A stretch of DNA of 64,000 nt from Pseudomonadota bacterium (lineage in GTDB: Bacteria > Desulfobacterota > Desulfobacteria > Desulfobacterales > JBDRRP01), in assembly GCA_043825735.1 (NCBI GenBank), contig JBDRRP010000139.1, positions 1 to 64,000 on the forward strand, written 5' to 3'. A program made the translations under genes and the position numbers. Under the pieces are notes generated by a model. The model saw nothing but the letters and a program-made list of their open reading frames with translations, did no database searches and was not told the DNA's origin. This document shows positions 2,956 through 64,000 of this stretch, one piece after another (position 1 is the stretch's first letter; each line of letters begins with the position of its first letter).

Positions 2956-2966
2956 TGCCCCACCCG

Positions 2967-2998
2967 CCCTGCGCGCCACGTATGGCAGGCGCGCAGGG
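2967..2998 (+). terminator. GC-rich stem-loop immediately after the carB stop
   Basis: 11-bp perfect inverted repeat ccctgcgcgcc / ggcgcgcaggg with a 10-nt loop. There is no clear U-tract. Confidence 0.4.
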
Positions 2999-3376
2999 GG
3001 GGGCGACGGGTGACGACGCAGTGTGGATGTATATCACCACTTTTTAATCTCCAATATTTGCATTTTTTCCCTGCCGAAATTCAAAGCAGGCTGCAAATTT
3101 TGGGGGACGCATATGTCCGGCCGCAGGCACAGAAATCATAACATAGCATATTCGTTGAATATTCAATCTTTTTGCCGATGCTCGAAAGCTTGGCATAATA
3201 CTTGTATAAATTTGAAAGGTCCTATAGTTGTAATTCCATACCCATAGCGTATTGCTTACAGCTATTTCCTTTCGTGCATCGGAAGCGTTTTCTCCCTCTT
3301 GTCTGTTCGACCTCTCTCGCGATCCGGTGCCCTGAAATATTAGTTCATTTCCGCCTTGATGTGAAAGGATGCGATA

Positions 3377-5305
3377 ATGGATCTTAAGAAAATGGTTGAC
3401 TGTCTATTGCCGCGGTTTGGCCATCGCGGAGATGTTCAGGATCACGGTCAACTCATTCTGGGGGCGCGGCTGGAACACGCTCGGCGTACCGTCACGGTAC
3501 GGCTCACCGGGAAGGCGGGCAGCGTTCCCATGATCGGGCAGATTCTCAGCGATATGGGTTCGGTAAACGAAAACCAGCTGCAGATGGCGCTGGCGCGGCA
3601 GCGCGAGCTGGTGACCCGGTATTGCGAACTGGAAAAGCCGGCGGAGGAGTCGCTGTGGGACTTGATCGGTTCGGTGACCGGTACCCTTGATTTGGAACAG
3701 GTACTCACGCTGGCCATGGAAAACGCGGCCAAGGTGACCGGTGCCCGGGCCAGCACACTATTCCTCCACGATGAAAATACCGGAGAGCTGGTGTTCAGTG
3801 TGCCTACCGGACCGGCTGCAGACAAGCTAAAGGCTGTCCGCCTGCCCCACGGGCAAGGGATTGCCGGCTGGGTCGCCGCTCACAAAACGGCGCTCATTGT
3901 TCCGGATGTGCAAAAGGACTCGCGGTTTTACCACGCCATCGATGAAACCACGGGGTTCGTCACCCGATCGGTGCTGGCGGTGCCGTTGATGCATGGGGGC
4001 GAACTGCTGGGTGTCCTGGAGACGATTAACAAAGAAAAAGGGGCATCTTTTACCGAAGAAGACGCCCTGCTGCTAACCGTTTTTGCCGATCAAGCGGCTA
4101 TTGCGGTCGTCAACGCCCGCGTGCATGCAGCTCTGAAAGCGCAGCTAAAGGAGATACATCATTCCCGGGAGCTACTGGTGGAGGCTGAAAAGCAGCGGGC
4201 GTTGCAAACGCTGGCCACGGGATTGTCGCACGATTTTAAAAACCTGCTAAACGCGGTTATCGGGTTCTCGGAGCTGGTGTCTCTGGATGTCACGGACGAA
4301 GCGATTAAAAAGGATGTCGATCAGATCTCCAACGCCGGTCGGCGCGCCTTGGAACTGGTGGATCAGATTCAGGGGATTGGCGGCCAGCATAAGCGGGAAA
4401 ATGTGAGCGTGGAAGGCAACAGCCTGGTCTCACGCGTGATCAAGCATTTTCGCCGGGCTTTGGCGGAGAACGTTCAGATACGGCTCACGCTGGCAACGGG
4501 TGCTTTCAGGATTTCCTGCGATCCGCTGCTCATGCAATCGGCGCTGGAAAAGGTATTGATCAACGCCATGGAGGCCATCGGAGATGCTCCCGGCCTTATT
4601 AAAATCGATGCCAGTATATTGACCGTATCGACAAAGAACGCGGACAAATATCCGCAGGTCGCACCCGGGCAGTATTACCAGGTCACAGTTGTCGATGACG
4701 GTGAAGGCATTGCGGAAGATGCTCAGCGAATGGTGTTCGAACCCTATTTCACAACGAAAAAGGGGGGAATGGGAAAAGGGTTGGGGCTCTCCACGGCGCG
4801 CGGCATCATTAAGAGTCACGGCGGTGCCATCACTCTGGCGAGCATCCAGGGGGAGGGCACGGCCGTTCAGATACTGCTGCCGGTCAGTGTTGCCGAAGTA
4901 AAATCCCTGGTTCCCAATGTGGACAGGCTGCCTCGGGGCCATGAGCATGTGCTCATTGTTGACGATGAGTCTTTTATTTCCATCACACTGGAAAAAATGC
5001 TGACTTTTCTGGGTTACCAGGTGTCACGGGTGGACCGCTCCCAGAAGGCGCTGGACCGCTATCACGACGAAAAAACGCGCCCGGACCTGGTGATCACTGA
5101 CTGGGCCCTGCCGGATATCCCCGGAGACGCTTTGGCCGAAAAACTGGTTTCGAAATACCCGGGGGCCCGGGTGATTCTCCTCTCGGCGTTCAGCAAGGAT
5201 TTTGATGAGGCGGCGCTGCGTGCGCGCGGCATCAGGGAATCCTTGCCCAAGCCCGTGGACATCCAGATCCTGGCAACGGCACTACGGCGGGTTCTCGACA
5301 GCTGA
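3377..5305 (+). CDS. hybrid sensor histidine kinase: GAF domain, HisKA, HATPase_c and a C-terminal receiver domain
   Basis: GAF-like block (GIAGWVAAH...LAVPLMHGGELLGVLE). H-box LSHDFKNLLNAVIGFSEL. G-boxes DDGEGI and GGMGKGLGLS. REC block VLIVDDE...ITDWALPDI. AAAGGA RBS 7 nt before the ATG, and an AT-rich upstream region at 3000-3370. Confidence 0.85.
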   Translation: MDLKKMVDCLLPRFGHRGDVQDHGQLILGARLEHARRTVTVRLTGKAGSVPMIGQILSDMGSVNENQLQMALARQRELVTRYCELEKPAEESLWDLIGSVTGTLDLEQVLTLAMENAAKVTGARASTLFLHDENTGELVFSVPTGPAADKLKAVRLPHGQGIAGWVAAHKTALIVPDVQKDSRFYHAIDETTGFVTRSVLAVPLMHGGELLGVLETINKEKGASFTEEDALLLTVFADQAAIAVVNARVHAALKAQLKEIHHSRELLVEAEKQRALQTLATGLSHDFKNLLNAVIGFSELVSLDVTDEAIKKDVDQISNAGRRALELVDQIQGIGGQHKRENVSVEGNSLVSRVIKHFRRALAENVQIRLTLATGAFRISCDPLLMQSALEKVLINAMEAIGDAPGLIKIDASILTVSTKNADKYPQVAPGQYYQVTVVDDGEGIAEDAQRMVFEPYFTTKKGGMGKGLGLSTARGIIKSHGGAITLASIQGEGTAVQILLPVSVAEVKSLVPNVDRLPRGHEHVLIVDDESFISITLEKMLTFLGYQVSRVDRSQKALDRYHDEKTRPDLVITDWALPDIPGDALAEKLVSKYPGARVILLSAFSKDFDEAALRARGIRESLPKPVDIQILATALRRVLDS

Positions 5306-5349
5306 CGCGTTGCTGTTCAGCGTTTCTACCCGCCGTGGTGCGCCGGAGA

Positions 5350-5841
5350 TCAGCAGCAGCCAGAGGAGCAGTCGCATCCACTGCCGCACCCGGATGGCGC
5401 CTGGGTCGCCGTGTCGCTGATGCCCACCACTTCAATGTCGAAGGTGAGGCTTTCCCCGGCCAGTGGGTGGTTCATGTCGATGGTGATTTTTTCATCGTCT
5501 ACCTGGGTGATGGTGGCCGGTATCTGATGTCCGTCGGGGGTGGTCATCCCGATGCGCTGGCCCGTCTGAGGGTTCATTTCAGGGGGCACGTCTGCCCGGG
5601 GAAATTCACGGGTCAGACTATCGTCATAAGCGCCATAAGCTTCTTCCGGCGCTAGGGTGATGGTCTTTTTTTCGTTCAGTGACATTCCAGCCACAGCGGC
5701 GTCGAATCCGGGAATCATCTGCCCGGCCCCCACCTTGAATTCCAGTGGACGCCGGCCCCGGCTGCTGTCGAAGACCTCACCGTTTTGGAGGGTTCCCGTG
5801 TAGTCTACCCTGACAAACAGACCGTTTTCAACTGTCTCCAT
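5350..5841 (-). CDS. slyD: FKBP-type peptidyl-prolyl cis-trans isomerase SlyD with a Cys/His-rich metal-binding tail
   Basis: VRVDYTGTL..GEVFDSS, an IF-domain insert, and the C-terminal tail SGCGSGCDCSSGCC. Confidence 0.85.
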   Translation of the reverse strand: METVENGLFVRVDYTGTLQNGEVFDSSRGRRPLEFKVGAGQMIPGFDAAVAGMSLNEKKTITLAPEEAYGAYDDSLTREFPRADVPPEMNPQTGQRIGMTTPDGHQIPATITQVDDEKITIDMNHPLAGESLTFDIEVVGISDTATQAPSGCGSGCDCSSGCC

Positions 5842-5912
5842 GCGACCTCCTCAGTTTGATGTTTGATTTCCGATCACGTTAAGAATCAATCCTGCCAAGT
5901 CAACCACGATGC

Positions 5913-7490
5913 TTGCCTATTGCGTCTGCAGCAGATGCGGCGGAATCGTCTTGCAAACGCAGGGCAATGGGCCTAAATGTGCGCCAGATGAAAATGATCC
6001 AGCCGGAAGCCGGGATGGCATCAGGGTATCGGCCCGATGGGCCACAGGGCGGGAGCGCTTTTGGAGAAGGTGCGGCGATGACGGTCTCGTTTTTTGAAAA
6101 GGAACGGCAACGGGAGCGGATTGCCGAAAATCTGGTCGAATTCGGTGAGCGCGGTGCTGACCTTAACTGGGTGAGCGGTGTCCGGGCGCAGACGGCGGAA
6201 GCCGAGCGGGCGCGCCTGCTGGGGGTCGTGGGTGATGCGGTCACGATGACCCATCGCCAGAGCAAACCGCACCTGGGGCCCTTGTCGCCGGGCTGCCGTA
6301 TTTGTGGTGAGGGGGCGTGGTCCTGCCTGTTTATCAATGGCAGCTGCAACTGCCGGTGCTTCTACTGCCCGACCGCCCAGGACGACATTTCGGTGCCGAC
6401 AACGAACCGGATCCCTTTCGACGAGGCCTCCGATTACGCCGATTATGTCAGGCATTTCGGCTTTACCGGCGCGAGCATCAGCGGCGGGGAGCCGCTGATG
6501 ACCCTTGGGCGGTCCCTCCGCTATATTCGGACCCTGCGTCATCGCCTGGGGCCCGGCCTGCACATCTGGCTATACACCAATGGTACCCTGCTGACGGCCG
6601 AAACCGTATCACGGCTCAAGGACGCCGGCCTGGATGAGATCCGATTCGACATCAGTGCGGCCGCTTACAGCCTGAAGCCGATCGGGCTTGCTGCCGGTCG
6701 AATTCCGGTCGTGACGGTGGAAATTCCGGCCATACCAGAAGACAGCGAATCACTTATAAAACTACTGCCGGCGTTGCGCGATGCCGGTGTCGATCATCTC
6801 AACCTTCATCAATTGCGGATTACACCGCACAACAGCGCCAACCTGGCAGCGCGCCCCTACACATTTCTCCACGGTGAGCGCGTGACCGTGCTGGAATCCG
6901 AACTGACCGCGCTGAAGCTCTTGGCCGCTGCCGCGGTCCAGAACATCGGCCCGCCCATCAATTATTGTTCATTTGTGTACAAGTACCGCTGCCAGCGGGC
7001 AGCGGTGCGGGGCCGCACGGCAGCGCTGATTTGCAAAGGCCATGAAGGAATCACTGAAAACGGGTACATCCGGCAGCTTGCCCTGTGCGGGCCGGCTGAC
7101 CAGATACGCCGTCAGGTAGATCGGCTGGTTACCCACGGCGTCGATCCTGCCCTGTGGTCGGCATCCGGAAAGGTGGATCGCCTCGCGTTTCACGAAACCC
7201 AGTGGCCGATGGTCGAGGATGCCGGCTGCACGGTGACCGTGAGCTATTCTCAGGCCGTTTTGCAGGCGCATGTGTCCTATCGGTGTGCGTTTACGGAGGT
7301 GCGGGTAGGCAGTGGCATGAAGCTTTTCATTGAAAAACAGCCGGTGTGCATGGCCCGCGTGCTCGGTGCCGAGGCCCAGCGATTGCTCAAAGGGTTGATT
7401 CGGGGATGCCCGGAGGAAAGCGGCTGGGCTGAAAACGAGACCATTGCCGGCTACGAGTGTATTTACCCGGGGCTTCAGGATTACTATTAA
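5913..7490 (+). CDS. radical SAM domain protein, activase-like, with an extra upstream Cys pair and a long C-terminal extension
   Basis: CNCRCFYC matches the CxxxCxxC motif. It is preceded by CRICGEGAWSC and followed by SISGGEPLM (SAM-binding GGE). The true start may be an internal Met (for example MTVSFF or MTHRQ). Confidence 0.7.
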   Translation: MPIASAADAAESSCKRRAMGLNVRQMKMIQPEAGMASGYRPDGPQGGSAFGEGAAMTVSFFEKERQRERIAENLVEFGERGADLNWVSGVRAQTAEAERARLLGVVGDAVTMTHRQSKPHLGPLSPGCRICGEGAWSCLFINGSCNCRCFYCPTAQDDISVPTTNRIPFDEASDYADYVRHFGFTGASISGGEPLMTLGRSLRYIRTLRHRLGPGLHIWLYTNGTLLTAETVSRLKDAGLDEIRFDISAAAYSLKPIGLAAGRIPVVTVEIPAIPEDSESLIKLLPALRDAGVDHLNLHQLRITPHNSANLAARPYTFLHGERVTVLESELTALKLLAAAAVQNIGPPINYCSFVYKYRCQRAAVRGRTAALICKGHEGITENGYIRQLALCGPADQIRRQVDRLVTHGVDPALWSASGKVDRLAFHETQWPMVEDAGCTVTVSYSQAVLQAHVSYRCAFTEVRVGSGMKLFIEKQPVCMARVLGAEAQRLLKGLIRGCPEESGWAENETIAGYECIYPGLQDYY

Positions 7491-13438: not shown

Positions 13439-13509
13439 GCATATTCGCTTTTCTATGAAGCTCCAGTTTAGCGTCAAAGACCACTGTATCCGATGACATT
13501 GTAATCACC

Positions 13510-13580
13510 AGTCACGGAGGGCACGGAGAAAACCAAAAATGATTGTTTTTGTTTATAAAATCTCCGTGTCCTCCGTGGTT
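13510..13580. repeat. heptamer-repeat hairpin element, CACGGAG type
   Basis: Left arm cacggagggcacggag, an A/T-rich loop, then ctccgtgtcctccgtg. Confidence 0.7.
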
Positions 13581-13644
13581 CAACATCCCTTTGGGAAAAG
13601 ACCAACTGGAGCTTTCTGCATAAGCGTATTTTATAATTCATATC

Positions 13645-13722
13645 TCCCGCAGAGGCGCAGGGAAAAGCACTCGCGCAATTCAATTTCCCGGGAGTTCTCT
13701 GCGTCTCCGCGCCTCTGCGCGA
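13645..13722. repeat. heptamer-repeat hairpin element, CGCAGAG type
   Basis: Left arm ccgcagaggcgcaggg, a loop, then ctctgcgtctccgcgcctctgcgcgag. Confidence 0.7.
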
Positions 13723-13819
13723 GAACATCTTTTTCCGATTGTAATGGCATTCGGTTGTGGCTTGAGCTTCCTGGATAAACGAAAAAGTCTTTTTGCCCCA
13801 TATCGACGTTTTCTGCGGT

Positions 13820-22454: not shown

Positions 22455-22494
22455 GCGGGATGGCCGTACTGCGGTTCACTTCCGCGTTTTGATC

Positions 22495-22578
22495 ACCACG
22501 AAGTTCACGAAGAACACGAAGGTAATAAAATCCTAAAGGTTTTTAAGGTTTTCTCCGTGCACTTCGTGTCCTTCGTGG
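22495..22578. repeat. heptamer-repeat hairpin element, CACGAAG type
   Basis: Left arm caccacgaagttcacgaagaacacgaagg, an A/T-rich loop, then cgtgcacttcgtgtccttcgtgg. Lies between convergent genes. Confidence 0.7.
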
Positions 22579-23084
22579 TTTGGACTCAACGCAGTTGTTT
22601 GTGCGGCGTGTTTTTCAAGTGCACGGCGCACATCGTCCTCGTGGAGCCGGGCATGTTCATAGGCCCACCGGATGAACCGTTCCAATTTCCCGTGGCCGTG
22701 AAAGGGGTGTCTGCCCTCCCGGTCCAGATCCGATTCCGCCATCGCGGCCACCATCGCCACCGTCTTGGCGCGCACGTTTCGAAAGTTTTCCAAAAGCGCG
22801 TCCATTGACAGCCCGTCGAGTTTCTGAGGCTGGGTCCGGTTGAAGCGGTCCACGTCGAAGTCTTCGGGCGCGCCCGGTCCACCGGCAAGGATGTTTTCGA
22901 AGAGGTTTTGCATGGAGCGCTCGATGGTAATGAAATGGGCCAGTACCCGGCGCACCGACCACTGGACGGTTTCGGTGTATACGGGCACTTCGAGCGCAGT
23001 GGCCGGCAGTGCGGCGAAAAACGCTTCCGATTCGGCCCCGCCGGCTTTCAAGGCGGCAATGATCTCTGATTTACGGGACGCCAT
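22533..23084 (-). CDS. DinB/YfiT-like (DinB_2) four-helix-bundle metalloprotein
   Basis: Conserved His pattern typical of the DinB family. The C-terminal HEGHEVHGENL is encoded by the repeat element. Confidence 0.5.
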   Translation of the reverse strand: MASRKSEIIAALKAGGAESEAFFAALPATALEVPVYTETVQWSVRRVLAHFITIERSMQNLFENILAGGPGAPEDFDVDRFNRTQPQKLDGLSMDALLENFRNVRAKTVAMVAAMAESDLDREGRHPFHGHGKLERFIRWAYEHARLHEDDVRRALEKHAAQTTALSPNHEGHEVHGENLKNL

Positions 23085-26805: not shown

Positions 26806-26890
26806 TGGTTGCCTGAGCTTGTCTTGAATGCATTCCTCCGCGGCGGATCGCACCGGTCGAAGCTTGATGGCCTCGTTAAAAGTCTGAAAT

Positions 26891-26940
26891 CACCGCAGAG
26901 GTCGCAGAGGTAACCAGAATAATTAAATGAATCCTCTGCG
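26891..26940. repeat. heptamer-repeat hairpin element, CGCAGAG type
   Basis: Left arm caccgcagaggtcgcagagg, an A/T loop, then cctctgcg. Confidence 0.6.
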
Positions 26941-27030
26941 TTTCATTGCGAACGCTGTGGTTCAAAATCGCTTTTTCCGGTTTTATCAAACTTCGGAGGC
27001 TCGCCTTTTGGGCGGGATCAGACCATTGTG

Positions 27031-30121: not shown

Positions 30122-32131
30122 ATGTCTGAAATAAGAGCCAAAAGCGGATCCGGTGCCGGTTTCGGCATCATGATGATTTTGTTTGCCGTGGCATTTATTG
30201 TGATACCGTTCATGTTTGAAGAGGTGGCTGGTGTGAGCCGCCTGATCCTGGTCGGTTTCGGCGTGGTGATGCTGCTGCTCGGATCCATTGTCATCATCAT
30301 CACACGGCTCTATGTGCGCACTGCCGCAGACGAGGCCTTTGTACGCACCGGCATGGGCGGACAGAAAGTGATTATCGACGGCGGCGCCATTGTCATTCCG
30401 GTGGTGCACAAAGTGGTGCCGGTCTCTCTGGCCACCATGCGCCTGGATGTGGAGCGCAAAGACCAGGATGCCCTGATCACCGGCGATAAATTGCGCGCTG
30501 ACATCAAGGCAGAGTTTTATATCAAGGTACAAAAGGATCGGGAGGCAGTGGTCAACGCGGCCACCTCCCTGGGCGAGCGATCGATCAATGCGTCCACGGT
30601 CAAAGAACTGGTCAATGAAAAGCTCATCTCGGCCCTGCGCACGGTGGCGGCCACCAGGTCCCTGGAGGATTTGAATGCCAAGCGCGACGAGTTCGCCGAC
30701 GCGGTCCAAAAAATCGTCTCCAGCGACTTGCGGCACAACGGTTTGACCCTGGAAAGCGTTACCGTATCCCAGCTCGACCAGACCCCGCCGGATAAAATGA
30801 AGGCCGAGTCCAACATCTTCGATGCCCAGGGCACGCGCCAGATTGCAGAGATCACCCAGCAGATGCGTGCTGAAACCAACGCCCTGGAGCGCGAGGCCGA
30901 CAAGTCCATCAAGAAGCAGGATGTGGAAAAAGACCAGTTCGTCTACGAGCAGGAGATCGCCCGGGCCTCGGCCGAAGCCCGGCAGAACAGCGAGATCGAG
31001 AAGGCCCAGGCCGAAGCGCAACAAAAGGCAGCCACCTTTACCGCCGAGCAGGACGAACTGGCCCGAGTGCGGGAAGTGAAACGCGATGAGGCGGTTTCAG
31101 TGGCCAATGTGGTGCGCGAGCAGCGCGTTCAAGTGGCCAACGTGGAGCGCGAACGCGCCCAGCAGGTGGCTGACATGGAGCGCCAGAAAGCCATTGCCAA
31201 GACCGCCGAAGAGCGCGCCAAGGCCGAAGCGGCTCAGAAACTGGCCGAGGCCGAGCGTGAAGCCGCCGATCAGCAGGTCAAGACCGTGGCCGTAACCGAG
31301 GAGGCCAAGCGCACGGCGGAAAAAGCGTACATCGACAAAGCGCGTCAGATCGATCAGGAAGCCTACCAGACCGAACGTCAGGCCGAAGCCTTGCGCAAAG
31401 CCGCGGAAAAGGAAGCGGAAGCCCGCAAGCTCAAGGCGGCCGCCGAGATGGACGCGCTGATCGCCGAAGCGGCCGGCGAGCAGGCCAAGCAGATGGTGCC
31501 GGTCAGTGTCGAAAAAGAAAAGGTGGCTGTCGAACAGAAACGGATCAACGATGTGTTGCAGCCCGAACTGAAGGCCAAAGCCGAGTTCAAGGAGATTTCG
31601 GTGCAGCTCGAGGTGAAGCTCAAGGAGATCGAAGTGAACGGCGATGTGCAGAAGGCTTTTGCCACGGCCATGGGACAATCCCTGGCCAGCGCCAAGATGA
31701 ATATCTTCGGCGATCCCGGCACCATGAGCAGGATGATGAACATGTTCAACCGGGGCCAGAGTGTCTCGACCCTGGTGGAAGGCTTCGGCGAAACCATGGA
31801 TCCCAATGCCCTGAAGAAGGCCGGCGACATGGTCACCGATATCGGCGAGAGCCTAGGCGGGATTCTACACGGCCTTTTCGGCAAGCGCCTGCCCGCCGAC
31901 AGTGTCGATGCCGTTGCCGCGCAACTGAAAAAGCATCCGGAGACCATCGCCCATATGCGAACGCTGCTGGCCCAAGGCGCCAGCGATCTAAAACTGGCGG
32001 CGCTTCTGGTTAAGGTATTCGGGGACGATTTTGATCTCAAAACCACCGCCGCATTTATCGAAGCCTTGCGCAAAGATCCGGCCATTCTGGACAAAATCGG
32101 TGATATCGTGGACAAGTTCAATGCCGAATAG
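30122..32131 (+). CDS. flotillin/SPFH (band 7) family protein, YqiK-like
   Basis: N-terminal TM, an SPFH block, a long E/A/K/Q-rich coiled coil and a C-terminal flotillin-like tail. AGGAAAGGA RBS. Confidence 0.8.
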   Translation: MSEIRAKSGSGAGFGIMMILFAVAFIVIPFMFEEVAGVSRLILVGFGVVMLLLGSIVIIITRLYVRTAADEAFVRTGMGGQKVIIDGGAIVIPVVHKVVPVSLATMRLDVERKDQDALITGDKLRADIKAEFYIKVQKDREAVVNAATSLGERSINASTVKELVNEKLISALRTVAATRSLEDLNAKRDEFADAVQKIVSSDLRHNGLTLESVTVSQLDQTPPDKMKAESNIFDAQGTRQIAEITQQMRAETNALEREADKSIKKQDVEKDQFVYEQEIARASAEARQNSEIEKAQAEAQQKAATFTAEQDELARVREVKRDEAVSVANVVREQRVQVANVERERAQQVADMERQKAIAKTAEERAKAEAAQKLAEAEREAADQQVKTVAVTEEAKRTAEKAYIDKARQIDQEAYQTERQAEALRKAAEKEAEARKLKAAAEMDALIAEAAGEQAKQMVPVSVEKEKVAVEQKRINDVLQPELKAKAEFKEISVQLEVKLKEIEVNGDVQKAFATAMGQSLASAKMNIFGDPGTMSRMMNMFNRGQSVSTLVEGFGETMDPNALKKAGDMVTDIGESLGGILHGLFGKRLPADSVDAVAAQLKKHPETIAHMRTLLAQGASDLKLAALLVKVFGDDFDLKTTAAFIEALRKDPAILDKIGDIVDKFNAE

Positions 32132-37933: not shown

Positions 37934-37954
37934 CCTTCTTCGTGTCCTTCGTGG
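37934..37954. repeat. single arm of the CACGAAG-type element
   Basis: ccttcttcgtgtccttcgtgg upstream of lutA. Confidence 0.5.
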
Positions 37955-54197: not shown

Positions 54198-54276
54198 AAT
54201 CCGCTCCTTGGTATAATTGGTGAACCCGTTTATCAATGGATCTCAAGTTTGATGGCCATTTAAAAGGCCTGAACTC

Positions 54277-54364
54277 ACCACAGAGGACGCAGAGGACGCA
54301 GAGAACGCAGAGGTAACCCACTATTATTATACACATTATCTGCTATTCTCTGCGCTCTCTGCGG
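54277..54364. repeat. heptamer-repeat hairpin element, CGCAGAG type, inside the paaK-iorB intergenic region
   Basis: Left arm caccacagaggacgcagaggacgcagagaacgcagagg, an A/T-rich loop, then ctctgcgctctctgcgg. Confidence 0.75.
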
Positions 54365-54378
54365 TTCAATATCACTGG

Positions 54379-58040: not shown

Positions 58041-58469
58041 ATGGCCGCTGATGACCGATTGATCTATCTGATCTCAAAGGCCCAGCATTGTCTGAAGGTG
58101 TATCTGAAAAAGGCGTTTGCGGCCGAGGGGCTGGACCTGACACCGGTTCAGGCGGGGATACTGTTTATGCTCAAGGAGGCGCCCCAGAGCATGACTCAGC
58201 TCTCCCGGCTGCTCGCCATCGACAATTCGGCCATTACCGGGCTGGTGGACCGGCTGGAAAAAGTCGACCTGGCCCAGCGCCGCCCAGACCCCGCGGACCG
58301 GCGGACCTGGCTGATTCATATTACGGACAATGGACGAAAAGAAATCGATCGGGCGCTGGTCATTGTCCGGCGTGTGAACAGCCAAATCAAAGAGGGGTTT
58401 TCGGCAGATGAAATCACTGTTTTCAAGACAGTGCTCACCCGATTTTTTGACAAGTTCAGCAAGGAGTGA
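58041..58469 (+). CDS. MarR family transcriptional regulator
   Basis: Winged-HTH LTPVQAGILFML...MTQLSRLLAIDNSAITGLVDRLEK...RRPDPADRR. Confidence 0.85.
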   Translation: MAADDRLIYLISKAQHCLKVYLKKAFAAEGLDLTPVQAGILFMLKEAPQSMTQLSRLLAIDNSAITGLVDRLEKVDLAQRRPDPADRRTWLIHITDNGRKEIDRALVIVRRVNSQIKEGFSADEITVFKTVLTRFFDKFSKE

Positions 58470-59389
58470 ACGGCATCATGCCTTTTGACACGGTTGAGAC
58501 GACCCGCGCGGCCCTGGAATCGGCCGGTTATATCTGCACCCACGAAACCGCAACGGTGGTGTTTCTGGCAGCCGCCACCCAAAAGCCGATCCTGGTGGAG
58601 GGTCCTGCCGGCGTCGGCAAGACCGAACTGGCCAAAGCCGTGTCCCGGTGCCTTTCGCGGGTGATGATTCGCCTGCAGTGCTACGAGGGGCTCGACGAGG
58701 CCAAGGCGCTTTATGAGTGGGAATACGCCAAGCAGCTTCTCTACACCCAGATCGTCAAGGAAAAGATCGGTGATGTGGTTCGCGGGGCTGCCACCCTGAC
58801 CGAGGCCGTGGATCTGATCGCCGACCAGGACGATGCGTTTTTCTCCGAGCGCTTCATGCTTCCCCGGCCGCTGCTCAAGGCCATTCGTGCGCCGGCGCCG
58901 GTGGTGCTCCTGGTGGACGAGGTGGACAAATCGGATCCCGAGTTCGAGGCCTTCCTGCTGGAAGTGCTCAGCGACTACCAGGTCACCATCCCCGAGCTGG
59001 GCACCATCACGGCGGCCCACATCCCCTTCGTGGTGCTCACCAGCAACAGTTACCGGGACATGAGCGACGCCTTAAAGCGCCGGTGTCTCCATCTTTACAT
59101 CGACTACCCGGATACCGATACCGAGCTGGCCATCGTTCGAAAAAAAGTGCCGGCCATCGCGGACGCCCTGGCCCGGCGGATGGTGGCCGTCATGGCCCGG
59201 ATCCGGACGCTGGACCTGAAAAAGGCCCCCAGCATTTCGGAAACCCTCGATTGGGCCCACGCCCTGATCGCCCTCCAGGTTGAAACGCTGTCCCCCGAGC
59301 TGGTCACCGACACCCTGAACGTCATCTGCAAGCACCGGGAGGATGCCCGCCAGGTCAGGGAGCAGATCAAGAATGTCGCTAATTTTTAA
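58466..59389 (+). CDS. MoxR/CoxD-like AAA+ ATPase
   Basis: Walker A GPAGVGKT, Walker B LLVDEVDK, and sensor motifs. Start overlaps the marR stop (ATGA). Confidence 0.8.
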   Translation: MNGIMPFDTVETTRAALESAGYICTHETATVVFLAAATQKPILVEGPAGVGKTELAKAVSRCLSRVMIRLQCYEGLDEAKALYEWEYAKQLLYTQIVKEKIGDVVRGAATLTEAVDLIADQDDAFFSERFMLPRPLLKAIRAPAPVVLLVDEVDKSDPEFEAFLLEVLSDYQVTIPELGTITAAHIPFVVLTSNSYRDMSDALKRRCLHLYIDYPDTDTELAIVRKKVPAIADALARRMVAVMARIRTLDLKKAPSISETLDWAHALIALQVETLSPELVTDTLNVICKHREDARQVREQIKNVANF

Positions 59390-59478
59390 TTGGTTTCATT
59401 GACCACGAAGAACACGAAGTGCACGAAGAAAAGATGAAACCAATTGGATTTTGGTCCTTCGTGCCCTTCTTGCGTTGC
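59385..59478. repeat. heptamer-repeat hairpin element, CACGAAG type, between moxR and the VWA gene
   Basis: Left arm ccacgaagaacacgaagtgcacgaag, loop with a nested aattggtttcat/atgaaaccaatt pair, then ccttcgtgcccttcttgcg. Confidence 0.7.
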
Positions 59479-59497
59479 GAGGTATCCCGCTTTCATC

Positions 59498-60877
59498 ATG
59501 GTCTCTTTGATACTCAAATTTGCCGCCTGCGCCAGGGCCGCCGACCTTCGCGTGTCCACTGCCGAGGTTTTGGACTGCCTGGGGCACCTGCGACTGGTGG
59601 ACCCCCTCGACGAGTCCCAGTTTGCCGCCGTCCTGCGGGCCAATTTCGCTAAAAGCCGCCGGGATCAGGAGCGCTTCGATCACATCTACCACCTGTTCTT
59701 CCATGAGCTTCAAGAGACCGATGACGGCGCCCAGTCGGTATCGCTGGCCGCGCACGTCGCGGATGTTCGCGACGCCGTGATGGGGGCTGCCGGTGACAAT
59801 CCCGAAATCGCGGCCGTTGCCGATTTTATGGCCGGCGAGCCGGCGGCCTATCTCCAGATGCTGCGAGACATTCAAAGCGAGGGCCAGAGCATGCGCCACG
59901 GGCCCGGCGCCAATCTGGGGGGGCTGGTGCGCCGGTTTCCGGTGCTCCGGGCCCTGGATCGGGCCGCCGAGCAGCTGGCAGCCTACCTGGACGAGCAATG
60001 GAAGGACATCCACTGGGAGACCCGGCGGCAGGTGGCGCGGCACCTGAACAACAGGCTGGCCGCAGCGCGGCGCCTGCTCACCCGGCAGGCGGTGTCGGAG
60101 ACGGCGACGATCCATGCCGCACCAACCGACGACCGATACGGAAAACTCGGCGGCATTGCCTTCAACGCGCTGTCTCCATCCGAAACGCGGCGGATGCGGG
60201 AGGTGATATCCCGGCTGGTGAAAAAGCTCAAAGACACGGTGAGTTTGCGCCAGGCTGCCCGCAGCCGCGGCACGCTGGATGTGAAAAAAACACTGCGACG
60301 GGCGGCCCGCACTCAGGGGATTCCCGTGGAGATCGCCTTTCGCCGAAAACCGCCGCGCAAGGGGCGAATCGTGGTCCTCTGCGATCTTTCCGGTTCGGTT
60401 TGGTCTTCGGCCAGGTTCATGCTCAACATGCTTTACTCCCTTCAGACCTGCTTTGACCGGGTGCGCAGTTTTGTCTTCATCGCCGACATTGCCGAAGTGA
60501 CCGCCTTTTTCGATCACCACGGCGTGGAGCAGGCCATCGCCAAGGTACTTTCCAAGGCCGATATCAATTACTGCGATTCAACGGACTACGGCCTTACCTT
60601 GCGACAGTTCAGGCAGCGTTACATGGATGCGGTGACCAAGAAGACAACGGTCATCGTCATCGGCGACGGGCGCTCCAACTACGCCAACCCCGAGGCGCAG
60701 ATTCTGGAGGAGATCCGTGACCGGAGCCGCCGGCTCATCTGGCTCAACCCGGAAACCGAACAGTTCTGGTACACCGGTGACAGTGAAATGCGCACCTATC
60801 AGGCCATCTGCAACGAGGTGCGCCCGTGCCGCAACCTCAACCAGCTCGCCGCTTTCATCAAGGATCTCGTGCTATGA
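59498..60877 (+). CDS. VWA-domain (CoxE-like) protein, partner of the MoxR ATPase
   Basis: MIDAS DLSGS (VVLCDLSGSV), and the C-terminal VIGDGRSN. Confidence 0.75.
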   Translation: MVSLILKFAACARAADLRVSTAEVLDCLGHLRLVDPLDESQFAAVLRANFAKSRRDQERFDHIYHLFFHELQETDDGAQSVSLAAHVADVRDAVMGAAGDNPEIAAVADFMAGEPAAYLQMLRDIQSEGQSMRHGPGANLGGLVRRFPVLRALDRAAEQLAAYLDEQWKDIHWETRRQVARHLNNRLAAARRLLTRQAVSETATIHAAPTDDRYGKLGGIAFNALSPSETRRMREVISRLVKKLKDTVSLRQAARSRGTLDVKKTLRRAARTQGIPVEIAFRRKPPRKGRIVVLCDLSGSVWSSARFMLNMLYSLQTCFDRVRSFVFIADIAEVTAFFDHHGVEQAIAKVLSKADINYCDSTDYGLTLRQFRQRYMDAVTKKTTVIVIGDGRSNYANPEAQILEEIRDRSRRLIWLNPETEQFWYTGDSEMRTYQAICNEVRPCRNLNQLAAFIKDLVL

Positions 60878-61824
60878 CAACCACCGGTGCAAATGAATTG
60901 CTGGGCGCCATGCTTTCCTGTCCGGCGGATCAGCCTGCCCCGCGCCACAGTGATCTGGCCGGATGGAAAACACAGTGGCGGGATCTGACTGCCCAATGGG
61001 GCGAACCCATCGATCGGTCCGTCTTCGGCGGATTTTTGTCGGACCGTCTGGCCTGGGCGTTTGTCGCCGGCTACCAGGGGGCTATTTCAAGACTGCTTCC
61101 TAATCTGCCGAAAAATGCCTTTGCGGCCATCTGCATCACCGAGGCCGGCGGCGCGCACCCGCGGGCCATCGAAGCGCGGCTCTGCCCGGATGAAATGACG
61201 GGTGGGTGGCGGCTTTCCGGAGAAAAGCGGTTCATCACCGGCGGGGAGGCCGCCGCCGTGCTGGTGGTGGCCGCTTCGACGGGCGTGGTGGACGGGCGCA
61301 ACCAGATCCGAATGGTCACGGTCGATCGCTCCGCCGATGGCATCGCCCTGACGCCCATGCCGCCGTTTGCCTTCGTGCCGGAGATCCCCCACAGCATCGC
61401 ACGATTTGAGGCCGTCAGGATCGATCCGGCGCAGGTGCTGCCCGGCGACGGGTACGCCGCCGTGATCAAGCCGTTTCGGACCATCGAAGACATCCACGTG
61501 GTGGGCGCCGTGCTGGGGTACCTGGTCGGCGTCGGCCGCCGGCACGGGTGGCCGGCGGCGGTTCTGGAGCGGGTGCTGGCAATGGTTGCCGGGCTGCGTG
61601 CGCTGAGTCTGGAAGACCCGCTGGCGCCGGCGGTCCACATCGCCCTGGCCGGTGTGTTTCGCCAACTGGGCCAGCGGCTTTCCGAAATGGACACCCTGTG
61701 GGAATCGGTCGATACCGACGCCACCCAGCGGTGGCGGCGGGACCGGCCCCTGCTGGATGTGGCCAACCGGGCCCGAGGCCTGCGACGCGCTGCGGCCTGG
61801 CAGCATTTCGGCCAATCGATCTAA
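60874..61824 (+). CDS. acyl-CoA dehydrogenase-like domain protein
   Basis: ACAD N/M-domain-like pattern (AICITEAGGAHP..., GEKRFITGG). ATGA overlap with the VWA gene. Confidence 0.5.
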   Translation: MTTTGANELLGAMLSCPADQPAPRHSDLAGWKTQWRDLTAQWGEPIDRSVFGGFLSDRLAWAFVAGYQGAISRLLPNLPKNAFAAICITEAGGAHPRAIEARLCPDEMTGGWRLSGEKRFITGGEAAAVLVVAASTGVVDGRNQIRMVTVDRSADGIALTPMPPFAFVPEIPHSIARFEAVRIDPAQVLPGDGYAAVIKPFRTIEDIHVVGAVLGYLVGVGRRHGWPAAVLERVLAMVAGLRALSLEDPLAPAVHIALAGVFRQLGQRLSEMDTLWESVDTDATQRWRRDRPLLDVANRARGLRRAAAWQHFGQSI

Positions 61825-61841
61825 GCTGTTTTTTGGTTTTT

Positions 61842-62153
61842 CTGCGTCTTGGCGTCTCTGCGCGAGCCGGAGGTGTTCTTTTCTTTGCCTGCCCAGAGAA
61901 ACGAACCAAACGCGTGCACCCGTCGTCCTGGTCGAGACTGTTGCGGGCATCACGGTGATTGCTTGGGCGAACACAAGGTTCGCCCCTACGGAGATATGGC
62001 GGAACCTGATGCCGAGATTCACCGCTGCCGGTTTGGCAGGGTATCGTAGGGGCGAATCTCGTATTCGCCCACATCGGTGACGTATTTTTGCTGCCGCGTT
62101 TACTTGTCCGCCAGCAAAAAGCCATTCTCGCGCAGAGGCGCGGAGTCGCAGAG
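61842..62153. repeat. MITE-like element of about 310 bp bounded by inverted CGCAGAG-type repeat arms, with an internal hairpin-rich core
   Basis: Left end ctgcgtcttggcgtctctgcgcgag, right end ctcgcgcagaggcgcggagtcgcagag (reverse complements). Internal hairpins ggggcgaac..gttcgcccc and gggcgaat..attcgccc. Confidence 0.5.
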
Positions 62154-62390
62154 AAAACCGAGAGAGTTGCCCTTCGGCCGGCTTGTTCGCCATAGCCTTG
62201 GCGAAGGTGGAAGGCCGCCCTTATCCTGTTGATCCTGTAAATCCTGTCAATTATCGCAGTTGCCGTTCGGCCGCAGGCCGCCAATCCCTATCAGCGTTCA
62301 TCAGCGTCCCATTCGGTTTTGCAGTTGCATTTCGGCCGCAGGCCGCTCATCTGTGTAATCTGCGTAATCCGCGTTCCATTCCGCGGTTGA

Positions 62391-63869
62391 TCAGGGTTTT
62401 GCCAGTGCCTCGCTCCGCCGGATTTTCTCCCGCAGCCGCGTGTAGGCGACCATGGCGCTGAAAGCCCGGGCGGCCCGCTCGGGGCTGGCCAGCACCGGCA
62501 CGCCCTTGTCCTGAAGCCCCGCGATAAAGGGATTGTCTCTCGTCAGAAATGAAAACCCCACTACCGGCTTCCCGTGGGTTCCCACCAGTCCGGCCACGGC
62601 CAGGCACTGGTCGTTGATAATCTGCTCGGTATGGGCGGCGATTTCCTCTTCCGGCACGCCCATGGCTTCGAGGGCGCGGCCGACCATCCGGGCCGTGGCC
62701 AGAAAGTAGACGAGCAGACCGTCGGCGCCTTCTTCTTCCAGGAGCACTTTGGGGATCCCGTGGAAGAAATCGAGAGGGTTTTTGGTGAAGGTGAGATCGA
62801 CCGGGTTGCCCACGCTGCCGGTGTGAGGGACAAACGGCGAGAGTTTTTCGAGTGTGGCCGCCGACAGCCGCGGAAGATCGAGTCCGACGCGGCCGCAGGC
62901 GTCGGCCGCCGCCGCGCCGGGCCCTCCCGAGTGGGTCTGGATGATGACCCGGCCTCCCCGGGGCAATGGGGCGGTGCCCAGCGCATAGCAGAAGTCGAAC
63001 ATCTCGGCGATGGAGCGGGCCCGGATGATGCCGCTTTGCCGGAAAACCCCGTCATAGAGGCGGTCGGGGCCGGCGAGGGCGCCGGTGTGCGACAGGCAGG
63101 CCCGCCGCCCGGTTTCGGATCCGCCCGCATAAAAAGCGACGATGGGTTTGATCTTGCTCACGTCGCGGGCCGTGTCGATGAACTTACGGCCTCGGCGGAT
63201 CGATTCCACGTACAGCGCGATGACTTTGGTCTCGGGGCAGGCCCCCAGGTATTCGATGCAGTCGACCATGTCGATGTTGGCTTCGTTTCCCAGGCTGAAG
63301 CCGGTGGAAAAGCCCCGGCCGAACTGGCTGTCGAGGTAGCTGAACATCTGGGTTACGAAACTGCCGCTGTGGGAGGCGATGCCGATGACGCCGGGCCGGC
63401 CCTCAAAGGGCAGGAACGTTGCGTTCAGGCGGCGGTGGGTGTTCACCACGCCGATGCAGTTGGGCCCGGTGAACCGGATGCCGTAGCGCTCGGCCACGGC
63501 GAGCAGTTCTTTTTGGCGCTGGGGGCCGTAGCCGCCCACCTCGTTGAACCCGGCCGAGACGATCACTGCACGGCGGATGCCCTTTTTCCCGCAGGCTTCC
63601 AGGGTTTCGATCACAAGCCGTGTGGGGAGCACGATGTAGGCCAGATCCGGGGTTTCGGGGATGGCGTCCACGCCGGCATAGGCGGGCAGATCCAGTACGG
63701 TCTTTTCGCTCGGATGCACCGGATAGAGTTTCCCCTCGAAACCAAGGGAAAGAACGGCACCCAGGATGCTGGTCCCCATGGCCGAGAAATTGTTGGATGC
63801 GCCGAAAAATGCGATGCTTTTCGGATTGGCGATGATGTGCAGGGGGCTTTGTTCAGGGCGGGTGATCAT
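62391..63869 (-). CDS. acetyl-CoA synthetase (NDP-forming) alpha / CoA-binding domain protein
   Basis: CoA-binding FFGASNN...GPNC and a succinyl-CoA-synthetase-like flavodoxin domain with HTGALAG. Confidence 0.75.
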   Translation of the reverse strand: MITRPEQSPLHIIANPKSIAFFGASNNFSAMGTSILGAVLSLGFEGKLYPVHPSEKTVLDLPAYAGVDAIPETPDLAYIVLPTRLVIETLEACGKKGIRRAVIVSAGFNEVGGYGPQRQKELLAVAERYGIRFTGPNCIGVVNTHRRLNATFLPFEGRPGVIGIASHSGSFVTQMFSYLDSQFGRGFSTGFSLGNEANIDMVDCIEYLGACPETKVIALYVESIRRGRKFIDTARDVSKIKPIVAFYAGGSETGRRACLSHTGALAGPDRLYDGVFRQSGIIRARSIAEMFDFCYALGTAPLPRGGRVIIQTHSGGPGAAAADACGRVGLDLPRLSAATLEKLSPFVPHTGSVGNPVDLTFTKNPLDFFHGIPKVLLEEEGADGLLVYFLATARMVGRALEAMGVPEEEIAAHTEQIINDQCLAVAGLVGTHGKPVVGFSFLTRDNPFIAGLQDKGVPVLASPERAARAFSAMVAYTRLREKIRRSEALAKP

Positions 63870-64000
63870 AGGGAGCCCTTTCCGTCCAATATAATTAGCG
63901 CATCCACGGCCACGACGCGGCCTTCCGGGGTGATGATCAGGGGGTTGATGTCGATTTCGGAGATGGCGGCCTTTTCCAGGCCGATGCGGCCCACGGCGGC
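63866..64000 (-). CDS. 3' end of an ATP-grasp domain acyl-CoA synthetase beta-type subunit, partial (truncated by the window edge)
   Basis: The reverse strand reads ...AAVGRIGLEKAAISEIDINPLIITPEGRVVAVDALIILDGKGSL. Its stop overlaps the downstream start (ATGA). Confidence 0.55.
   Translation of the reverse strand, partial: AAVGRIGLEKAAISEIDINPLIITPEGRVVAVDALIILDGKGSL

Follow-up and report, generated by a model that had tools for sequence, protein, structure and literature searches.

A 566-nt spacer between convergent genes of a Desulfobacterota genome is probably a mosaic of small, independently arrived REP-type repeats

Introduction

Repetitive extragenic palindromic (REP) sequences tagged with GTAG are palindromes of 20–40 bp with stems of 6–13 bp and an unpaired GTAG at one end, and 24 such families have been published (PMC3733652). 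They lie mostly between convergent or unidirectional open reading frames (ORFs) and form dimers with spacers of 20–100 bp, often heterodimers, in which the GTAG ends point outside (head-to-head, HH) or inside (tail-to-tail, TT); such dimers are sometimes located within other palindromes (PMC3733652). Two inverted REPs which, together with their spacer, are predicted to form one hairpin are defined as a REPIN (PMC3116915), and a preprint describes REPINs as lineage-specific and vertically inherited (bioRxiv 10.1101/2022.05.22.493013). TnpAREP enzymes process REPs as folded single strands, and GTAG takes part in recognition and in the choice of the cleavage site (PMC8266576). Here, we analyse the 566-nt spacer (61825–62390) between two convergent genes in a 64,000-nt stretch of contig JBDRRP010000139.1 from a Desulfobacterota genome (the window, by which we mean that whole stretch). 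An earlier note on this DNA had proposed a single mobile element or a structured RNA at this site. We found what appears to be a TT dimer of GTAG-tagged REPs between two arms of a dispersed repeat family, followed by a tract of further repeats, and we consider it probable that these small REP-type elements arrived independently and built up a mosaic similar to the bacterial interspersed mosaic elements (BIMEs) of Escherichia coli.

In BIMEs, which occupy the 3′ intergenic space, short palindromic units of more than one kind alternate in orientation and are interleaved with other motifs; binding of IHF, gyrase and Pol I to them has been shown. Bacterial miniature inverted-repeat transposable elements (MITEs), such as Correia/NEMIS, Nezha and Chunjie, are noncoding, about 300 bp long, bounded by terminal inverted repeats and characterized by strong secondary structure. 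For Nostoc, Elhai and colleagues reportedly described in 2008 that very small repeats had inserted into other ones, tandem arrays of short period among them. The intergenic mosaics of Neisseria are mentioned together with the GTAG REPs (PMC3733652).

Results

Dispersed modules in the spacer

Gene calls agreed with the position between a dehydrogenase-like and a convergent synthetase gene that the earlier note had given (Table 1). An assembly artefact of the metagenome-assembled genome (MAG) can be dismissed for this region, since an independent Logan assembly agrees: two Logan contigs (run SRR26275510) correspond to window 59403–62217 and 62224–64000 with zero mismatches.

We compared positions 61825–62395 by BLAST with the window, with 142 fetched loci (excluding the two Logan copies of the window) and with 120 metagenome loci. 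The comparison loci, denoted by L numbers, had been fetched by arm and REP patterns, so that 22 of the 28 arm positions were predetermined by the pattern itself. Matches were obtained only at 61841–61866, 61963–61992, 62043–62072, 62124–62157, 62223–62250 and 62289–62306, that is, at the modules treated below, and none of these collections contained a match to 61867–61962, 61993–62042 or 62073–62123. Matches to the modules were to be expected because the loci were retrieved by arm or REP patterns; the informative part is that similarity never extended one base beyond the modules. The 260-nt interior as a whole did not recur in the window, in 261 fetched loci or among PLSDB plasmids (blastn, distant mode). 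Two local hairpins within the unique interior sequence had no match either, the one at 61875–61906 in any fetched locus and the one at 62085–62120 elsewhere among the fetched loci. On these comparisons, 61837–62156 is not a demonstrable MITE, and its modules appear to be dispersed each separately.

The central REP dimer

The centre of the spacer contains two perfect 8-bp hairpins, GGGCGAAC-ACAAG-GTTCGCCC at 61965–61985 and GGGCGAAT-CTCGT-ATTCGCCC at 62050–62070, which are the only matches to this hairpin pattern in the window, vs 0.00 expected. GTAG abuts each stem, reading on the plus strand as CTAC after the first hairpin and as GTAG before the second, and GTAG, stem and loop together span 61965–61989 (minus strand) and 62046–62070 (plus strand). 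Units 1 and 2 constitute a TT heterodimer, with GTAG inside, whose 27-nt arms are 89% complementary. A compensatory change from C-G to T-A distinguishes the two stems, and the arms of both units pair mutually in the minimum-free-energy folds of either strand. All of the perfect small hairpins claimed in the earlier note were present, with the correction that the stem of the first one has 8 bp, not 9. Judged from these features, the inner units appear to be GTAG-tagged REPs: they are palindromes with a terminal GTAG, they are extragenic between convergent ORFs, and the spacer of the heterodimer falls within 20–100 bp. As modelled, the two inverted REPs with their spacer also fit the REPIN definition of one predicted hairpin (PMC3116915).

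Identical 25–29-mers of REP unit 1 exist in viral and metagenome contigs. Within IMG/VR, 25 contigs contain the pattern GGGCGAAY-N5-RTTCGCCCCTAC, with HH dimers predominating, and no TT pattern was found there. Some contigs carry several copies of the unit (e.g., L017 and L254). TT dimers with the same head (TTCGCCCCTAC-N40-70-GTAGGGGCGAA) were found at no fewer than 120 metagenome loci. The exact stem-loop format of the window occurred in 16 of the listed metagenome dimers, five of which are C/T heterodimers like the one in the window. The spacers of the metagenome dimers are conserved within lineages only, and that of the window dimer had no match among 124 TT dimers from metagenome loci.

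REP-associated tyrosine transposase (RAYT)-like ORFs adjoin the dimer in 10 of the 120 listed metagenome loci. Those at L170 (150.9 bits) and L216 (104 bits) pass the cut-off of 80 for the NCBIfam family NF047646 (REP-associated tyrosine transposase) and match Pfam Y1_Tnp; at L246, which carries exactly the REP subtype of the window, the RAYT-like ORF scored 66.8 bits (E = 1.8e-18). The core 61964–62071 may be regarded as a REPIN-like doublet, a type of substrate that RAYT/TnpAREP (HUH) enzymes cut and rejoin as folded single-stranded DNA (ssDNA). RAYT-type single-strand cleavage and joining has been shown for the family and its relatives, and we infer that the dimer reached this locus in the same way.

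Outer arms

The REP dimer lies between two arms, which form a 30-nt inverted repeat with 25 of 30 positions matched (83% complementary) and 260 nt between them, within a few bases of the coordinates in the earlier note. When the spacer was shuffled 200 times with dinucleotides preserved, the best inverted repeat of 30 nt had 18.4 ± 0.9 matches, and the maximum was 22. The arms belong to a family with the pattern (CTCTGCGY)3CGAG, and the kinship to a dispersed family claimed before is borne out. The third member in the window, at 13695–13723, has one mismatch to the right arm, which reads TTCTCTGCGACTCCGCGCCTCTGCGCGAG on the minus strand. The left arm is identical over 26 of 26 nt to arms in the Planctomycetota MAG loci L057 and L110, with similarity elsewhere confined to 61841–61866, and the right arm is identical over 30 of 30 nt to the Verrucomicrobiales MAG locus L085.

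A degenerate 26-nt arm pattern, TCTGCGNCTNNGCGNCTCTGCGCGAG, was found at at least 117 loci (L028–L144) among species-representative genomes. The taxa, at least ten phyla in all, include Planctomycetota, Verrucomicrobiota, Kiritimatiellia, Cyanobacteria, Desulfobacterota, Acidobacteriota, Gammaproteobacteria, Sphingomonas, Bacteroidota, Thermotogae, Bacillota and Actinomycetota. The pattern is also present in organisms in culture, among them Adhaeretor mobilis, Lewinella cohaerens, Nostoc sp. ATCC 43529, Atlanticothrix silvestris, Lamprobacter modestohalophilus, Thiococcus pfennigii and Natronospira elongata, the cultured hosts including Cyanobacteria, Bacteroidota and Chromatiales, and 23 predicted viral contigs of IMG/VR carry it as well (L269–L291). 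The usual architecture of the family is 5′-CTCGCGCAGAG(RCGCAGAG)n - loop - (CTCTGCGY)nCTCTGCGCGAG-3′, with the CTCGCG/CGCGAG ends outside. Among the matches listed, 52 pairs have this outward orientation, with total lengths of 56–542 nt, and seven are inward as in the window, with gaps of 9, 12, 25, 165, 260, 310 and 395 nt (eight pairs if viral loci are included).

Rfam searches over the arms in 18 other loci gave no match, and literature searches by the exact strings of arms, nonamers and the GGCC hairpin returned primer coincidences only, or nothing. Among the ORFs within 300 nt of arms (601 clustered ORFs, 117 loci), no transposase was recurrent; only GxxExxY proteins recurred, at four loci. 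These proteins (TIGR04256) are flanked by inward arm pairs or by single arms (L095, L086, L032 and L137). Inward arm pairs enclose small ORFs in two cases: a GxxExxY protein (TIGR04256, 134.6 bits) at L095 866–1303, and an unannotated 73-aa ORF on a viral contig at L284, approximately 1783–2004.

Membership of the arms in the CGTC-tagged REPs was considered and rejected. Such REPs have an 8–9-bp stem starting with AT pairs, a 4–5-nt loop, a terminal CGTC and a CCA tail; CGTC strings are present in the arms, but these are not individually palindromic and lack both the A/T-first stem and the CCA tail. Going by their sequence features, arms and 9-nt arrays are neither GTAG nor CGTC REPs.

Additionally, seven further intergenic hairpin elements are located in the window (13503–13592, 13640–13726, 22488–22585, 26882–26968, 37938–37954, 54270–54372 and 59395–59470), which are the dispersed elements of the earlier note. 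Their arms consist of 2–4 tandem units of 9 nt (or 8 nt) of the CACGGAG, CGCAGAG and CACGAAG types, their termini resemble TTGAYCAC.../...GTGGTTCAA, and their loops are A/T-rich.

Downstream repeat tract

The separate repeat tract noticed earlier is real and, at 62163–62392, is made up of three units in tandem, here denoted U0 (93 nt), U1 (65 nt) and U2 (72 nt). The units follow the plan (A/G)(G/C)AGTTGC-NN-TTCGGCCG-loop-AGGCCGC, then 2–3 copies of a 9–10-nt unit, and the units of the arrays are ATCCTGT, ATCAGCG and ATCTGYG/ATCCGCG. ATCCTGT occurs three times at 62223–62251 and TTCGGCCGCAGGCCGC twice, at 62266–62281 and 62331–62346; further repeat sites are ATCAGCGTTCATCAGCGTCC at 62290–62309 and TAATCTGCGTAATCCGCG at 62357–62374. 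According to the alignment, U0 equals a U1/U2 unit plus a 30-nt insertion located exactly in the loop of the CGGCCG/CGGCC hairpin, and the insertion bears a TTCGCC/GGCGAA hairpin of its own.

These modules, too, have relatives in other genomes. Over 28 nt, the ATCCTGT array is 96% identical to pyrimidine-type hairpin arms in the Kiritimatiellia MAG locus L060. The combination of GGCC hairpin and TATCAGCGTTCATCAGCGGTT (ATCAGCG array) recurs in the Planctomycetota MAG locus L068 and, with other 9-mers, in L048 and L110, and TAATCTGCG/ATCAGCG arrays are present in the Desulfobacteraceae MAG locus L045. The tract was also considered as a structured RNA and rejected, its stability being like that of shuffled sequence (z = −0.5 and −1.0).

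The terminal GGTTGATCA (62385–62393) overlaps the TGA of the synthetase gene, so the repeat either borders the 3′ end of this ORF or provides it. The ends of the Logan contigs fall exactly within 9-nt tandem arrays, CACGAAG at 59403 and ATCCTGT at 62217/62224, with 6 nt missing between the two contigs, which points to k-mers that occur repeatedly or to arrays whose copy number varies within the population.

Table 1. Features of the spacer, the flanking genes and a related arm elsewhere in the window
Feature	Position	Strand	Evidence and remarks
REP unit 1, GTAG + GGGCGAAC-CTTGT-GTTCGCCC on minus strand	61964..61990	-	8-bp stem, 5-nt loop
REP dimer spacer, 54 nt, unique	61991..62044		small hairpin CTGCC-GGTTT-GGCAG at 62025-62039
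REP unit 2, GTAG + GGGCGAAT-CTCGT-ATTCGCCC	62045..62071	+	8-bp stem, 5-nt loop
Left arm, TTTTTCTGCGTCTTGGCGTCTCTGCGCGAG	61837..61866	+	inverted repeat; pyrimidine-type octamer array ending CTCTGCGCGAG, CGAG end toward interior
Right arm, CTCGCGCAGAGGCGCGGAGTCGCAGAGAAA	62127..62156	-	octamer array, minus strand TTTCTCTGCGACTCCGCGCCTCTGCGCGAG, CGAG end toward interior
Third octamer-array member in window	13695..13723	+	right arm of hairpin element ~13640-13726
U0: AGTTGC..TTCGGCCG + 30-nt insertion + AGGCCGCC, then ATCCTGT x3 (9-nt period)	62163..62255	+	alignment; TRF
U1: GCAGTTGCCGTTCGGCCGCAGGCCGCC, then ATCAGCGTYC x2	62256..62320	+	direct repeats; alignment
U2: GCAGTTGCATTTCGGCCGCAGGCCGCT, then ATCTGYGTA/ATCCGCG x3, ending GGTTGATCA	62321..62392	+	direct repeats; TRF; alignment
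Local hairpin GTTCTTTTCTTTG-CCTGCC-CAGAGAAACGAAC	61875..61906		minimum-free-energy structure; within unique 61867-61963
Hairpin TTTTTGCTGCCG-N12-CGCCAGCAAAAA	62085..62120		inverted repeat; within unique 62072-62123
Acyl-CoA dehydrogenase-like gene, 316 aa	60874..61824	+	Pfam Acyl-CoA_dh_M; stop codon 12 nt 5′ of left arm
ADP-forming acyl-CoA synthetase alpha-type gene, 492 aa	62391..63869	-	Pfam CoA_binding_2, Succ_CoA_lig, Ligase_CoA_2

Nesting in other genomes

Nested arrangements recur in unrelated genomes. In L115 (Natronospira), an HH dimer of another GTAG REP (GTAGGAGCGGCTTTAGCCGCGAT) lies within a 253-nt arm pair, and in L056, L135 and L140 inner hairpins of 9-nt arrays lie within arm pairs. 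L057 and L110 from Planctomycetota combine, side by side, a GTAG REP, an arm identical to the left arm of the window, a GGTTGCGGCCGCAGGCC hairpin and nonamer arrays. Together with the insertion in U0, this suggests that small elements land preferentially in the loops of hairpins. Landing in the loop of an earlier hairpin is directly visible for U0 and may also have taken place at the arm pair.

As a separate observation, the regions L057 150–1150 and L110 1300–2000 (minus strand) are Planctomycetota MAG spacers with dense mosaics of the module types of the window, namely GTAG REPs, octamer arms, GGCC hairpins, several nonamer arrays and CTCGCAATGACAT motifs, and are richer than the window spacer.

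Folding, 3′-end signals and alternative explanations

The structure prediction proposed in the earlier note supported a strong fold: region 61830–62165 is much more stable than its shuffled versions (z about −8), with −162.5 kcal/mol for the plus strand (z = −8.2) and −153.8 kcal/mol for the minus strand (z = −7.9). Near-equal fold energy on both strands is the signature of a DNA palindrome. Due to the inverted orientation of the arms, the whole 320 nt can fold as one long nested hairpin, as ssDNA or RNA and on either strand.

Such folds would make a putative role as a 3′-end barrier plausible. A further-reaching explanation is that the host has selected a bidirectional 3′-end element, a terminator or RNA stabiliser for both genes, which was built from repeats and kept for its function. 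The position directly after both stop codons and the very stable folds on both strands agree with it, and the transcript of each strand would first meet a pyrimidine-type arm and then a stretch rich in T (on the plus strand CTTTTCTTT, beyond 61866; on the minus strand CTTTTTG, beyond 62127). Elsewhere, 27% of paired arms and 13% of solo arms in other genomes are succeeded by a T-run, vs a background of 5.5%, and in the window there is one terminator-like site at 61851–61877. However, this site is one of two weak plus-strand sites in the terminator scan (the other at 62065–62080), vs 1.1 expected, and none was found on the minus strand. The hairpin at 62085–62120 is terminator-like, but on neither strand is its stem followed by a U-run, and it is absent from the terminator scan list. 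Most arms elsewhere lack a T-run, and solo arms showed no orientation bias relative to neighbouring ORFs in a crude ORF-based test. Spacers of 46–400 nt and different downstream neighbours suffice for the relatives of the dehydrogenase-like gene, and the tract is no more structured than shuffled sequence. We regard selection for a 3′-end function as unlikely.

The earlier note had interpreted 61842–62153 as a single MITE-like unit. In its most explicit form, a non-autonomous transposon of ~320 bp would have the arms as terminal inverted repeats and the REP dimer as cargo, and it would be mobilised in trans by an arm-recognising transposase. The 30-nt inverted repeat is indeed far above chance, the arms come from a dispersed family, size and lack of coding capacity fit, and other inward pairs flank small cargo (the GxxExxY gene at L095 and the 73-aa ORF at L284). 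Yet the flanks GCTGTTTTTT (61825–61834) and GAGAGAGTTG (62160–62169) contain no direct repeat, i.e., there is no target-site duplication, and the interior has no second copy in the window, the 261 loci or the plasmids. The Logan contig is unbroken over 61825–62217, although the same assembly breaks at the nonamer arrays, which would argue against long exact repeats elsewhere in the sample. Furthermore, the orientation is opposite to the family norm (52 outward vs 7 inward pairs), and no transposase recurs beside the arms in 117 loci.

The two arms also do not look like partners. They agree at 23 of 28 positions, and each has a relative in another phylum that agrees at 27–28 of 28. Since 22 of the 28 positions are fixed by the family pattern, six can vary, and at five of these the window arms disagree. 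In true hairpin pairs, by contrast, the two arms co-vary: variable octamers in outward pairs change together, as in CGCTGAG/CTCAGCG (L136), CGCAAAG/CTTTGCG (L075) and CGCGAAG/CTTCGCG (L059). Random arm pairs from unrelated genomes have 21.2 matches on average, and 55% of them reach at least 23. About half of the sampled arms are unpartnered at the stringency used, so two solo arms in one permissive spacer are not far-fetched. Without a second interior copy in the sequences compared or a target-site duplication and with unmatched, inside-out arms, the single MITE-like unit was not supported, and we consider it distinctly improbable.

A structured non-coding RNA gene or riboswitch-like element, the other proposal of the earlier note, has the fold (z about −8) on its side and nothing beyond it, and it is very unlikely: the energy is near-equal on both strands, as for a DNA palindrome, the Rfam search suggested at the time gave 0 matches at gathering score in the whole window and only noise with E > 2 in an E-value search of 61700–62500, a scan found no sigma-70-like promoter, and outside the dispersed modules nothing is conserved in other sequences. 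Just as improbable is a decayed gene cassette, in which the arms once flanked a small gene that has since eroded. The arrangement of Y-arm and R-arm does bracket small ORFs elsewhere (L095 and L284), but translation of the interior in six frames yielded nothing that matched Pfam at E <= 1, stop codons occur in every frame, and the REP dimer already accounts for 110 of the 260 nt.

Flanking genes

The dehydrogenase-like protein is 100% identical to the NCBI entry [quoted passage not shown]. Its next relatives are at most 59% identical, and the named ones include Desulfosarcina, Desulfobacterales and Deltaproteobacteria MAGs. The synthetase gene is convergent with the dehydrogenase-like gene and ends with a TGA stop codon at 62391–62393 on the minus strand. 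Because the relatives are at most 59% identical and share synteny upstream only, with other genes downstream, there is no orthologous spacer or empty site for comparison.

The order of an AAA (MoxR-like) ATPase, a VWA CoxE-like gene and a short acyl-CoA dehydrogenase-like gene (middle domain only) is found in the window at approximately 58466–61824 and in L147 at 2707–5936. This AAA-VWA(CoxE)-dehydrogenase-like order is kept in Desulfosarcina alkanivorans and in Logan contigs, and the downstream neighbour varies. Elsewhere in the window, a tandem repeat with a period of 33 nt is located at 31099–31183 (2.6 copies, 77% matches, TRF score 84).

Discussion

Altogether, the spacer is best explained as a REP/BIME-like mosaic of small elements that probably arrived independently of one another. 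Dispersed repeats from four or more families without mutual relationship, all of them short and self-complementary, would have accumulated in it, partly nested. A RAYT-type enzyme is the likely agent for the REP dimer, and the octamer arms and the hairpin-nonamer units would have come separately, with some elements landing in the loops of hairpins already in place. The repeats probably persist owing to their being tolerated in the 3′ space that convergent genes share. If the locus is transcribed, the transcripts of both genes would meet very stable 3′ structures that could hinder exonucleases and read-through, and as RNA the repeats may stabilise the 3′ ends of both messages; a passive effect on the host seems the most probable one.

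Several observations weigh against this explanation. A RAYT-like ORF was found in the 64-kb window neither by phmmer with E. coli RayT nor with a hidden Markov model built from 8 hits, and the window contains two REPs and three arms only. The arm pair is statistically strong as an inverted repeat, about 200 nt of the interior are unique sequence with an unexplained origin, and the fetching of loci by pattern makes module-limited similarity easier to see. A cargo-carrying unit is also conceivable, since inside-out pairs bracket small ORFs in L095 and L284.

The near-identity of the arms over 26–30 nt with Planctomycetota and Verrucomicrobiota MAGs is unexplained and constitutes the best lead. 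REP families are normally lineage-specific, and the identity of the arms crosses phyla. Tentatively, and with more doubt than confidence, one may think of the outer arms and 9-nt arrays as an undescribed cross-phylum superfamily of miniature hairpin elements. Its units would be tandem 8–9-nt repeats of CTCTGCG, CTTCGTG, CTCCGTG, ATCCTGT, ATCAGCG and further types, with conserved termini CTCGCG/CGCGAG or TTGAAC/GGTTCAA. The same reading, taken jointly and held to be rather unlikely in this form as well, would include a mobilisation route other than RAYT, mutual insertion into loops and the bracketing of cargo, namely the REP dimer here and the ORFs in L095 and L284. If the arm family is truly undescribed, how 30-nt repeats spread or persist across phyla becomes a tractable question.

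What looked like a 310-bp transposon is more probably an accumulation of small repeats of REP type that a permissive spacer has collected, a phenomenon known from BIMEs, REPINs and mosaic intergenic regions. The locus is a clear example of nesting, with a REP dimer in an arm pair and a 30-nt insert in a hairpin loop, and this pattern recurs in unrelated genomes.

From bacterial MITEs, the window element differs in that it has no target-site duplication, no further unit copies found and no matched arms. With the REPIN-RAYT system (PMC3116915; PMC8266576) it shares the inverted REPs that form, with their spacer, one predicted hairpin, and dimers with the same head flank RAYT-like genes elsewhere; in contrast, the 64-kb window has no RAYT, the spacer is unique among the 124 dimers compared, and the REP head of the window is spread over many metagenomes, whereas REPINs are lineage-specific according to the preprint cited above. 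To the GTAG REP superfamily (PMC3733652), the dimer corresponds in the palindrome with GTAG, the TT heterodimer, the structured spacer of 54 nt, the position between convergent genes and the location within a larger palindrome. Differences are the loop of 5 nt, vs mostly 2–3 nt in the described families, and the occurrence of two copies in 64 kb. The likeness to the nested repeats of Nostoc lies in the nesting of small repeats, whereas sequences and hosts differ. Finally, the layout of the window spacer is like that of the E. coli BIMEs and the Neisseria mosaics, and it is built from different module families.

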